Virus genome (UHGV): UHGV-0037280
DNA from: a virus
Length of the DNA stretch: 64,000 nucleotides
Direction: 5' to 3' (one strand)
How positions within the stretch are numbered: the stretch's first letter is position 1; every line of letters begins with the position of its first letter. A program made the position numbers and the translations under genes. Under the pieces are notes generated by a model. The model made no database searches. It had not been told where the DNA came from and saw only the letters and a list, made by a program, of their open reading frames with translations. Shown one piece after another: positions 18,103 to 19,649 of this stretch.

Positions 18103-18567
18103 CAGGGTTTTCGTCATGGTTAGCGACTTTGCGGCGGTTTAGAAACTGACCATTAAAGTAAATGCAAACGATGATCTGATGATGGTAGCGGCCTAAGAAG
18201 CCAGACGCCACGGGGTATGAGTCGTCCCCCGTCAAAAAATCGACCGCAGAGTGTCCCCGTCTGTGTATTAGGGAACGGGGAGGCACAACAGGTAAGGGCG
18301 CTGGTGTGATTAACCAGATGAACGAGAAGGGGCCATCTGTTGGTCAGCGTCCTTTCCTGTTGCGTCTTCTTTTCAGCGTAACAGCGGTGCTTAACAGCAC
18401 TTTGGGTACAGTTCCACGAATTTACGGGTATATCCCGTCATGCTGAAAGCGCTAATCACGCTGGAAGCCAGGGTTATGCATCCCCTGTTACCGAATTGCA
18501 GCCAGGGCGCGGTGCGCCGAAAAGCATACGGAGGTGGAAGCCCTCGCCGGAGACGTACCCGGCAAGT

Positions 18568-18643
18568 GATGGTGTAGCTCAGCGGTTAGAGCGGTTGACT
18601 GTTAATCAACGGGTCGATGGTTCAAATCCATCCACCATCGCCA
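18568..18643 (+). tRNA. tRNA-Asn (anticodon GUU)
   Basis: manual cloverleaf: acceptor GATGGTG/CACCATC, anticodon loop CTGTTAA, T-loop TTCAAAT, encoded CCA. Confidence 0.9.
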
Positions 18644-18645
18644 AT

Positions 18646-18721
18646 GCCGGTTTAGCTCAGTTGGTAGAGCGCCTGCCTTGTAAGCAGGATGTCAGCGGTT
18701 CGAGTCCGTTAATCGGCACCA
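18646..18721 (+). tRNA. tRNA-Thr (anticodon UGU)
   Basis: manual cloverleaf: acceptor GCCGGTT/AATCGGC (one G-U), anticodon loop CTTGTAA, T-loop TTCGAGT, encoded CCA. Confidence 0.9.
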
Positions 18722-19649
18722 GCACAACAGGTAAGGGTATTTTGCGACGTCGGAGATCGCCGAGCTTGGCAGAGGGTTCGAATCCCTACGAAGTACCCTT
18801 ACCGTTGTGATGAATGCGCAGGCTGATGCGCGAAAGACATTGCAGCTATTGCGGAAAAGAGCTGTTCGGCGGGGCAATTAAACGCCCGTGAGAGTCTGAA
18901 ATAACCGCAAGCCGGAGATCAGCACCGGTCATCACAACACAACAGGTAAGGGCATTCTCCCTTATGGGGCTTGGCTTAAATGCATCGAGTGCTCTTACCG
19001 TTGTGATGAAGTGCAGCTCTTTGAAGCAACCAGAAGATAAGCATCTGGCTTCACAACATAAACCGCAGGAACGACCAATAAACGGTAGTCCGTATGGAGA
19101 ACACCCCGTTGAGGAAGAGGCCTGGCCGGAACCGTAACCGGCACTACAACGTTGAGAACACTGGCGTAACGGGGTCATATCCCAATCTACGAATAAATGT
19201 TGCGTTGCAGCGTGACAACCAGTGTTCTCAACATTGTGGTGAATGCACAGGCTGATGTGCCGCAACTACAGTAGTGCGCGCTTTGCGGGGCTTGCTACAA
19301 CCCTGTGTCGGAGTTCAGCACCGACCATCACAGTTTGATTCTCTGGCATGAGCATAACGCTGAAATAAGTCCAGCCTGGTGCGGCCCGATCACCCGCCGT
19401 TAGCTCCACGAAACGGAGCACGTAACAGGTAAGAGCATTCTCCTGTAACGGGTTCATATCCCAATCTACAGGTCCACCAAGAATGCTCTTTCCGTTGCGG
19501 TGAATGCGGCTAAGCGCACGCGGGGAAATGGTTATATCAGTCCATTCATTTCTCCTTGTTTCCCCGTCCACGGTGGATAACCAGCCAAAGGACACCGGGA
19601 GGCACCCGGCACCGCAGCTTTTTTATTCGTTAAATAATGGAGTGAGAGG

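Follow-up and report, generated by a model that had tools for sequence, protein, structure and literature searches.

We analysed a 64,000-nucleotide stretch of virus genome UHGV-0037280 (hereafter the window) and found that five long hairpins flanking its tRNA-Asn and tRNA-Thr genes are members of a widely distributed family of structured RNAs. Rfam does not list this family, and none of the literature searched describes it; bacteriophage lambda carries a copy. Judged by its sequence, the window is a P1-like phage, and the array appears to sit in the approximately 1.7-1.75 kb untranslated leader of the C1-repressed early (ban) operon. Our favoured reading, held with moderate confidence, is that the elements are double-stranded processing stems, probably cut by RNase III, which divide a polycistronic transcript of noncoding RNA, tRNAs and mRNA. 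The analysis followed up an earlier reading of the same letters (the original prediction), in which at least five related elements had been described at this place.

All five were found: the hairpins lie on the + strand within 18281-19499, bracket tRNA-Asn and tRNA-Thr, and follow the common pattern CACAAC(A)GGTAAGRG...CYCTTWCCGTTGYG-GTGAA. Every copy folded more stably than its dinucleotide-shuffled versions (z scores from -5.5 to -6.8), with 0/200 shuffles equally stable. In place of the perfect stems of 10-14 bp that had been described, the actual stems are 20-23 bp long and 83-93% complementary, and most have a single bulged A six pairs up from the base. The claim of a common 5' core and 3' tail held in the main, as the core AACAGGTAAGRG has four exact matches in the 64 kb and the tail CCGTTGYGRTGAA three, all on the + strand and all in the array region; copy 1, however, is without the GTGAA tail. 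The tail of copy 4 departs from CCGTTGYGRTGAA at two positions. When nhmmer profiles of both arms were run, matches in the window were confined to 18283-19509, apart from one reverse-strand match (E=2.3) that is the complement of an arm.

The individual copies differ in their setting and in how closely they follow the pattern. Copy 1 (18281-18368; -42.9 kcal/mol, z -5.5) is the most divergent; it retains the exact 5' core, and its arms, 18281-18303 and 18345-18367, are 83% complementary. Copy 2 (18723-18809; z -5.8) begins one base past the CCA end of tRNA-Thr (18721) and carries in its tip a T-arm-like hairpin with GGTTCGAATCC at 18775-18785, just as had been noted for a copy adjoining that tRNA. 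The copy 2 element is also present in phages P1, D6 and SJ46, and BUCT554 aligns at 87.5% over that stretch. Copy 3 (18929-19009; z -6.6) is the unit missing from P1, the indel lying at the repeated 3' arm. Copy 4 (19142-19241; z -6.8) has 23-nt arms of 91% complementarity; its stem, GTTGAGAACACTGG / CCAGTGTTCTCAAC, is off consensus and keeps its pairing, and is the source of many of the double-sided changes described below. Copy 5 (19421-19499; z -5.6) has both the exact core and the exact tail. The internal motif predicted to be common to two copies was located as TCATATCCCAATCTAC at 19175-19190 in copy 4 and 19454-19469 in copy 5. In a 919-nt fold of 18722-19640 (z -8.25), the long stems of copies 2-5 were retained in both the minimum free energy and the centroid structures.

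Covariation was evaluated using nhmmer arm profiles and pair counting over 71 distinct arm pairs, divergent ones included (besides that of copy 4, for example, CTGAAACGGTTTT/AAAGCCGTTTCAG and GATGAGAGCACTC/GAGTGCTCTCTTC). Standard pairs occupied 91.4% of cells, and double-sided changes occurred at 10/20 pairs (78 cells). None of 500 shuffles reached the observed covariation score, and sliding the partner by 1-3 columns lowered pairing to 36-58%. RNAalifold, the kind of covariance folding that had been proposed as a check, independently gave the same helix. U-G and G-U pairs were frequent (46/71 at one position); because these would be A-C mismatches on the complementary strand, they point to the + strand RNA. 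The stem is under selection as RNA.

Beyond the window, the pattern ACAGGTAAGRG-N30-60-CYCTTWCCGTTG was present in at least 120 IMG/VR viral contigs and in approximately 20 Enterobacterales species, including Serratia, Klebsiella, Pectobacterium, Pantoea and Kluyvera as well as Citrobacter, Erwinia, Enterobacter, Brenneria and Kosakonia. A near-complete set of features recurs in the 74 distinct copies that were recovered: they share a near-invariant stem (CACAAC-A-GGTAAGAGCATTG with CAGTGCTCTTTCC-GTTGTG) and a near-invariant 3' tail, GGTGAAT, very often followed by a second hairpin, GCGCA-GGCTGA-TGCGC (hairpin B). The tips, about 28-60 nt long in most copies, fell into approximately 36 classes with no detectable mutual similarity; they were no more structured than shuffles (mean z -0.5), and the sole motif common to them was a T-loop-like GTTCGA in about 4/36 classes. 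An Rfam 15 search of the window and 17 related loci, at gathering thresholds and at E up to 10, returned no family over the stems; the matches obtained were tRNAs, sub-threshold STnc100, chance microRNA hairpins, and YrlA over true tRNAs. A full-text literature search with strings from the element yielded only chance matches in unrelated papers.

The lambda copy occupies 44787-44868, between Q and S (seen in a DE3 lysogen and in NC_001416), and starts approximately eight bases past the T-run of tR', the 6S RNA terminator. Other prophages have the element just as close downstream of unrelated terminator hairpins; the Q genes ahead of these belong to three unrelated families (PF03589, PF06530 and PF06323), and a phage lysozyme or annotated holin gene follows. 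In mEp460-type and Stx2 phages it lies between a cI-like repressor gene and the first ORF (open reading frame) of the pL operon, just past a boxB-like hairpin. In locus L015 a tRNA follows GTTGTG directly (the Rfam call runs from the next base), and in L072 the sequence after GTTGTG reads, by eye, as the start of a tRNA. The element shared the orientation of the nearest ORF of at least 150 amino acids (aa) in 73/98 cases downstream and 85/110 upstream. No convincing copy was found in the E. coli K-12 cryptic prophages DLP12 and Qin or in HK022 at 22-30 kb. Klebsiella phage K751, a virulent member of the Ackermannviridae, has about 3 kb without annotated genes (L132, ~1000-4050) inside which P1-leader modules are found, namely AGAAACTGACCA, a long stem, hairpin B and its companion hairpin C (see below), an STnc100-like segment and T-loop-like hairpins, with no tRNA called. 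Matches outside the enterobacteria were all on tiny or ~48.5 kb (48.4-48.5 kb) low-coverage contigs carrying the lambda-type 70-nt element; such contigs (L140, L165, L173, L154, L161 and others) come from assemblies of Pseudomonas, Shewanella, Oceanobacillus, Neobacillus, Bradyrhizobium and other genera, and almost certainly represent lambda DNA contamination.

The setting of the array was established by comparison with annotated relatives. Over 17890-19660 the window is 98-99% identical to Escherichia phages vB_EcoM-813R1, RCS47, JL22 and P1. According to the P1 and P7 records, the homologous stretch starts directly after dmt with a divalent C1 operator and the ban promoters, and continues in the order 'dicF-like region', tRNA-Asn, tRNA-Thr, tciABC, tRNA-Ile, ban. 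At the place homologous to 17878-17915 (+ strand), where the window has the inverted repeat ATTGCTCTAATAAATT, these records annotate Oban/Op72 and P1ban/P2ban, and we take this palindrome and promoter region as the start of the leader transcript. An intrinsic-terminator-like hairpin with a T-run, detected by a terminator scan at 18076-18103 (+), ends the 'dicF-like' segment, which is a misc_feature of P1 and gave no DicF match in Rfam. The tRNA-Asn (GTT) gene at 18568-18643 and the tRNA-Thr (TGT) gene at 18646-18721, both on the + strand, were called by ARAGORN and by the Rfam tRNA model (74.5 and 72.9 bits, respectively). The first + strand ORFs begin at 19650, and ban begins at 21078. A promoter scan of 17800-19900 reported no promoter-like site, which is weak evidence because the scan did not detect the annotated ban promoter either. 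Between the array and tRNA-Met/Ile, P1 tciABC is replaced in the window by a 78-aa ORF (19650-19886) and a 275-aa Band_7/SPFH protein (19867-20694), whose counterpart in phage Ro157c2YLVW is annotated as a lipoprotein.

The long stems are accompanied by smaller conserved structures, all on the + strand. Hairpin B (GCGCA-GGCUGA-UGCGC, 18816-18831) follows a GAUGAAU tail and is conserved after the element in many loci, where its stem shows the compensatory variants GCACA/TGTGC, ACGTA/TACGT and TCGCA/TGCGA; its second copy in the window, GCACA-GGCUGA-UGUGC at 19245-19260, makes up with it the direct-repeat family D1. A further hairpin, C, forms direct-repeat family D2 with covarying stems: CCGG-AGAUCAGCA-CCGG at 18912-18928, followed by UCAUCACAAC; the variant CCAGA-AGAUAAGCA-UCUGG at 19030-19048, followed by CUUCACAAC; and GUCGG-AGUUCAGCA-CCGAC at 19307-19325. 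In both B and C the stems covary and the loops are conserved, and the two loops are complementary to each other, GCUGAU of the B loop GGCUGAU pairing with AUCAGC of the C loop AGAUCAGCA. When each B hairpin was paired with the C hairpin that follows it, 27/28 distinct combinations had complementarity of at least 5 nt. In locus L063 (minus strand, ~1313-1500 of the reverse complement), GGUCGAU faces AGUUCGACA, a compensatory double change. This pattern of sequence change suggests a kissing-loop contact between B and C that would close the domain between two long stems. A small hairpin read from the sequence, GCUCC-ACGAAAC-GGAGC (19403-19419), lies directly 5' of copy 5 and also precedes the element in many lambdoid loci. 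Finally, a module resembling the small RNA (sRNA) family STnc100/PasD was matched at 19496-19616 (RF02076, 37.8 bits, E 3.3e-6), a match that is below the gathering score of 47 and covers only model positions 31-147 of 206. At its start the module overlaps the copy 5 tail, and it closes with a stem and a U-run behind it. Both STnc100 and PasD have been described as sRNAs encoded by prophages (bioRxiv 10.64898/2026.05.13.724894).

Comparison of related phages points to a modular array that evolves through recombination at its repeats. P1 has exactly one unit fewer than the window, with the junction in the repeated 3' arm CTTACCGTTGTGATGAA. P7 and D6 have an additional tRNA-Ser (TGA; L007 1949-2035 and L006 1966-2052, respectively) inside the array and an additional long stem, the tip of which is the sequence found just 3' of the element in lambda; by the ARAGORN calls, the tRNAs in the D6 record are annotated on the wrong strand. 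Ro157c2YLVW has an additional tRNA-Tyr (L005 1336-1422) and a small inserted ORF. ARAGORN confirmed these tRNA-Ser and tRNA-Tyr genes, and called no extra tRNA at the elements of P1-like, mEp460, Stx2a, K751 and BUCT554 loci. In Salmonella phage SJ46 (L008 1728-1803), a 5' arm of the copy 4 type is joined at TCATATCCCAATCTAC to a 3' arm of the copy 5 type. The inter-stem segment 18798-18940 recurs at 96-98% identity in the pL leaders of Stx and mEp460-type lambdoid phages. Across loci, identical tR' flanks hold different tips, and identical tips occur in different flanks.

Three interpretations had been offered for the array. Processing signals fit best; small RNAs are tenable only in a derived sense, should the apical tips or the inter-stem domains be released as RNAs; and tRNA-like genes found no support. 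From the annotation of P1 and P7 we infer that the leader is a single co-transcript from the ban promoter. Once C1 was inactivated, this promoter (~17.9 kb) would yield one transcript containing, in order, the dicF-like segment, copy 1, tRNA-Asn, tRNA-Thr, copies 2-5 with their intervening structured domains and the STnc100-like module, and continuing through two ORFs, tRNA-Met/Ile and ban. Each element would fold co-transcriptionally into a 20-23 bp helix in which the base, CACAAC/GUUGUG, and the 3' tail, GGUGAAU, are nearly invariant, while the tip can change freely. The helices would then be cleaved by an endonuclease specific for double strands, most probably RNase III of the host, so that the two pre-tRNAs, the domains between stems, the STnc100-like RNA and the mRNA downstream come apart, with ends trimmed by RNase P, RNase E and exonucleases. 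In lambdoid phages the element would play the same role in two leaders: the Q-dependent late leader, where it immediately follows tR', and the pL leader, where a nutL-like hairpin precedes it.

RNase III cleavage is proposed because the stems have the length of RNase III substrates and lie at the kind of place where cutting of phage and rRNA transcripts is known, between polycistronic units and after nutL or tR'. The likeness of their most invariant part, GUUGUG/ACAAC, to the 23S rRNA processing stem and a weak alignment of the copy 5 tail to the 23S 5' junction (both given below) point the same way. Such a substrate is a mostly Watson-Crick helix of approximately 20 bp or more (about two turns), and the stems, at 20-23 bp, are of this kind. 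It should also lie inside a transcript between the units to be separated; by position the elements do, in that they fall precisely at the borders between the tRNAs, further conserved RNA modules and the first ORF, with transcription taken from annotation. The base-pair preferences of RNase III in the proximal, middle and distal boxes have been described (PMC6212723). A literature search for P1 transcriptomes turned up nothing relevant to the array, and a P1vir/hfq preprint was without data on the region. RNase III processing sites in lambda late leader RNA were reportedly described by Daniels et al. in 1988 (cited in PMC7547250), and these may fall inside the lambda hairpin at 44787-44868.

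Several observations weigh against RNase III processing stems as a sufficient account. The covariation analysis chose arm partners as the best duplex upstream of the 3' arm, which biases it towards pairing. About 1/4 of copies differ in orientation from the nearest long ORF. The chimeric arms of SJ46 are mismatched, and individual copies are therefore dispensable. A simple cut site leaves the near-invariant stem sequence unexplained, and cutting accounts neither for the persistent 30-60 nt tip nor for the swapping of tips between identical flanks. Because a bare cut site need not keep its sequence or its tip length, or swap its tips, there is room for a cargo model: the stem would serve as a scaffold, and the product would be the variable tip or the inter-stem domain, released as a regulator, a sponge or a decoy imitating host stable RNAs. 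This model, which we consider possible though unlikely, is compatible with RNase III cutting and moves the function from the cut to the cargo. It would account for the approximately 36 unrelated tip classes carried on near-identical stems, for the occurrence of one 5' flank with different tips and of one tip in different flanks, for a tip length held at 28-60 nt in most copies, and for the conservation of the 18798-18940 inter-stem segment between P1-like and lambdoid phages noted above. It also draws on the T-arm mimic in some tips, that of copy 2 included, and on a lambdoid domain after hairpin B that matches helix 11 of 16S ribosomal RNA (rRNA) at 33/40 positions, with compensatory flips. 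The latter match (E. coli 16S nt 242-282) was equalled in score by 0/300 shuffles; the domain was seen in lambdoid late leaders at L057 ~3973-4050, in L046, L116 and L124, and as a variant in L053, and it has the look of an rRNA-fragment mimic encoded by the phage. However, the tips have no excess structure and no common motif beyond GTTCGA in about four classes, and antisense matches of the window's tips and spacers elsewhere in the window were only at chance level.

A bolder form of the same idea, which we regard as doubtful, would make the stem a universal excision scaffold from which enterobacterial phages express interchangeable small structured RNAs, both tips and kissing-loop-closed domains. 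Some of these would mimic host stable RNAs: copy 2 a tRNA T-arm, other phages helix 11 of 16S rRNA, and perhaps also the 5' end of 23S rRNA. The phage would then carry a rapidly shuffled set of decoys or regulators, made first after induction and directed at tRNA- or rRNA-recognising host factors or defence nucleases, and the true tRNAs would be part of the same counter-defence locus. On the 23S side, the copy 5 tail and STnc100-like start, UGCGGUGAAUGCGGCUAAGCGCACGCGG (19486-19545), found their best alignment to rrnB (L184 2338-2369) at the 23S 5' junction, UGAGGUUAAGCGACUAAGCGUACACGG, a weak alignment equalled in score by 10/300 shuffles. When the modules of the window were compared with rrnB, only the copy 2 T-arm (5/200 shuffles) and the STnc100-like start (17/200) rose above background.

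The elements might instead act during transcription, either shielding 1.7 kb of untranslated RNA from Rho or conferring terminator resistance in the manner of put or nut sites, an explanation that we judge improbable. Their place is always the leader of an antiterminated or terminator-containing operon, immediately behind a tR'-like terminator or a boxB-like hairpin, and the commonest 3' arm holds UGCUCUUU or UGCUCUUA, with hairpin B approximately 14 nt later. These strings are the boxA core of rrn and lambda nut sites. However, a nut site would present a single-stranded boxA conserved by sequence and then boxB, whereas UGCUCUUU lies inside the helix, and the boxA-like string is gone in the covarying variants GTTCTCAAC, CCGTTTCAG and GCTATCAGC, in which pairing is kept; it is therefore the helix, not boxA, that is under selection. 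Five serial copies, and copies between tRNAs, would be unexpected for an antiterminator, and no N- or Q-type factor is known for the P1 ban operon.

Still less probable is a function at the DNA level, in which the inverted repeats are cassette boundaries or recombination sites comparable to integron attC sites or miniature inverted-repeat transposable elements (MITEs) and the RNA fold is incidental. The architecture does recall attC in its conserved stem base, extrahelical base and variable terminal structure, and RCACAAC/GTTGTGR is one mismatch from the attC consensus, RYYYAAC/GTTRRRY. The repeated arms are also where units have been added or lost, and tips have been swapped; such indels are explained by ordinary homologous recombination between repeats. 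Orientation follows transcription, approximately 75% of copies sharing the orientation of the flanking genes, the G-U pairs are specific to the + strand, and no integrase or transposase was consistently near the element in annotated neighbourhoods, all of which speak against a DNA-level function.

A role as sponge or mimic of the host sRNA GcvB is very improbable. Under this explanation the CACAACA 5' arms would sponge GcvB as AgvB does, or the GUUGUGAUG 3' arms would mimic the GcvB seed. AgvB uses CACAACA, the R1 target consensus of GcvB (PMC4104026), and this string is present in copies 1, 2 and 3. In addition, the 3' arm and tail CTTACCGTTGTGATG (18796-18813) match gcvB CTTACGGTTGTGATG, the start of the R1 seed region (nt 58-72 of gcvB, L138), at 14/15 positions. 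However, the motif is locked in a 20 bp helix, R1 duplex energies were unremarkable (only about the top 1-2% of the window), and there was no Rfam match to AgvB, which is a 51-60 nt RNA from a different type of locus. Identity with AgvB or AsxR was likewise rejected, as size, locus and model all differ and RF02702/RF02703 gave no match at E up to 10.

The original prediction had stated that no credible protein ORF spans the elements, which stands only in part: the minus strand has open frames at 18846-19265 (139 aa) and 19266-19595 (109 aa), where plp ('putative lipoprotein') and upl are annotated in P1 and RCS47. That the region encodes these proteins, with incidental hairpins, is scarcely credible, as the frames have no Pfam match, the agreement of Plp with P1 lasts for 93 aa and ends precisely where the 196-nt unit indel lies, the Upl start differs, the annotated P1 plp overlaps the 3' end of tRNA-Thr, the underlying modules recur in many phages in varied order and strand context, and other depositors annotate nothing or other ORFs over the same sequence; plp and upl are probably spurious and not genes. 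Degenerate or permuted tRNA-like genes are not supported either: ARAGORN called nothing apart from the three true tRNAs, and with E values up to 10 the Rfam tRNA model matched none of the copies; T-loop-like sequence is confined to copy 2 among the window copies and to about 4/36 tip classes, the remaining tips being unrelated.

Two further features of the window were noted outside the leader. The Dmt ORF (15304-17892) encodes 862 aa as against 754 aa from the P1 coordinates, with a C5-cytosine methylase domain at the N terminus and an N6-adenine (D12) domain at the C terminus. Rfam matches to C4 antisense RNA lie on opposite strands at 47210-47421 and 53803-54009, together with isrK and c4-a1b1 matches, and the two C4 matches suggest two immI-type antirepressor control regions within one phage.

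If the favoured reading of the elements as RNase III processing stems is true, a conserved mobile RNA element has gone uncatalogued even in lambda and P1, which are among the best-studied phages, and P1-type genomes mislabel it as two probably nonexistent proteins. It would also explain how long untranslated phage leaders containing tRNAs and sRNAs are divided. The signature CACAAC...GTTGTGGTGAAT plus hairpin B offers a means of finding noncoding arrays in prophages. The tips, the B-C loop pairing and the rRNA- and tRNA-like modules raise the question of whether phages deliver diverse small RNAs on a common scaffold at an early stage of infection.

Among known systems, GOLLD, ROOL and YrlA are likewise structured noncoding RNA loci beside phage tRNA genes, and YrlA combines a long terminal stem with a domain containing a T-arm, as copy 2 does. 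YrlA, however, reached 25.6 bits against 69 and only over the true tRNAs, and E. coli is not known to have the Ro protein that YrlA binds. The locus in the window has no Rfam match to these families and is a modular array, not one large fold. The AgvB/AsxR RNAs (RF02702, RF02703) are also phage-borne, located downstream of PR', and built from a conserved scaffold and a variable part, and they have the CACAACA motif in common with the element, but they are primary transcripts of 51-60 nt with a conserved 3' region and a variable 5' end of 14-18 nt (PMC4104026). STnc100 and PasD (RF02076) occur near Q genes in prophages, and the tail of copy 5 (UGCGGUGAAU GCGGCUAAGCGCA...) starts the partial match, which has a terminator-like stem at its end; no part of the array but the 3' flank of this one copy matches, and the long stems fall outside RF02076.

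Further parallels are with lambda and with rRNA processing. As a conserved family with a variable tip, the element appears to have no earlier description. The lambda late leader itself contains a copy straight after tR', and in lambdoid pL leaders the element follows a boxB-like hairpin, which is the order of nutL and then the RNase III hairpin in the lambda N leader, although that N-leader hairpin is dissimilar to the element in sequence. In the RNase III processing of E. coli rRNA operons (the 23S flanks), T7 early mRNA and the T4 tRNA cluster, long helices formed from flanking sequence likewise separate the functional RNAs of a polycistronic transcript with tRNAs in it. The element helix differs from the 23S stems in that it usually closes a short variable tip rather than a functional RNA, and the alternative pairing GUUGUGAUGA / UCAUCACAAC, which would enclose an inter-stem domain, amounts to only 10 bp; the likeness to rrn is moreover brief and statistically weak. 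The base of the element, GUUGUG/ACAAC, resembles the 23S stem sequence GGGUUGUGAGG / CCUUACAACGCC.

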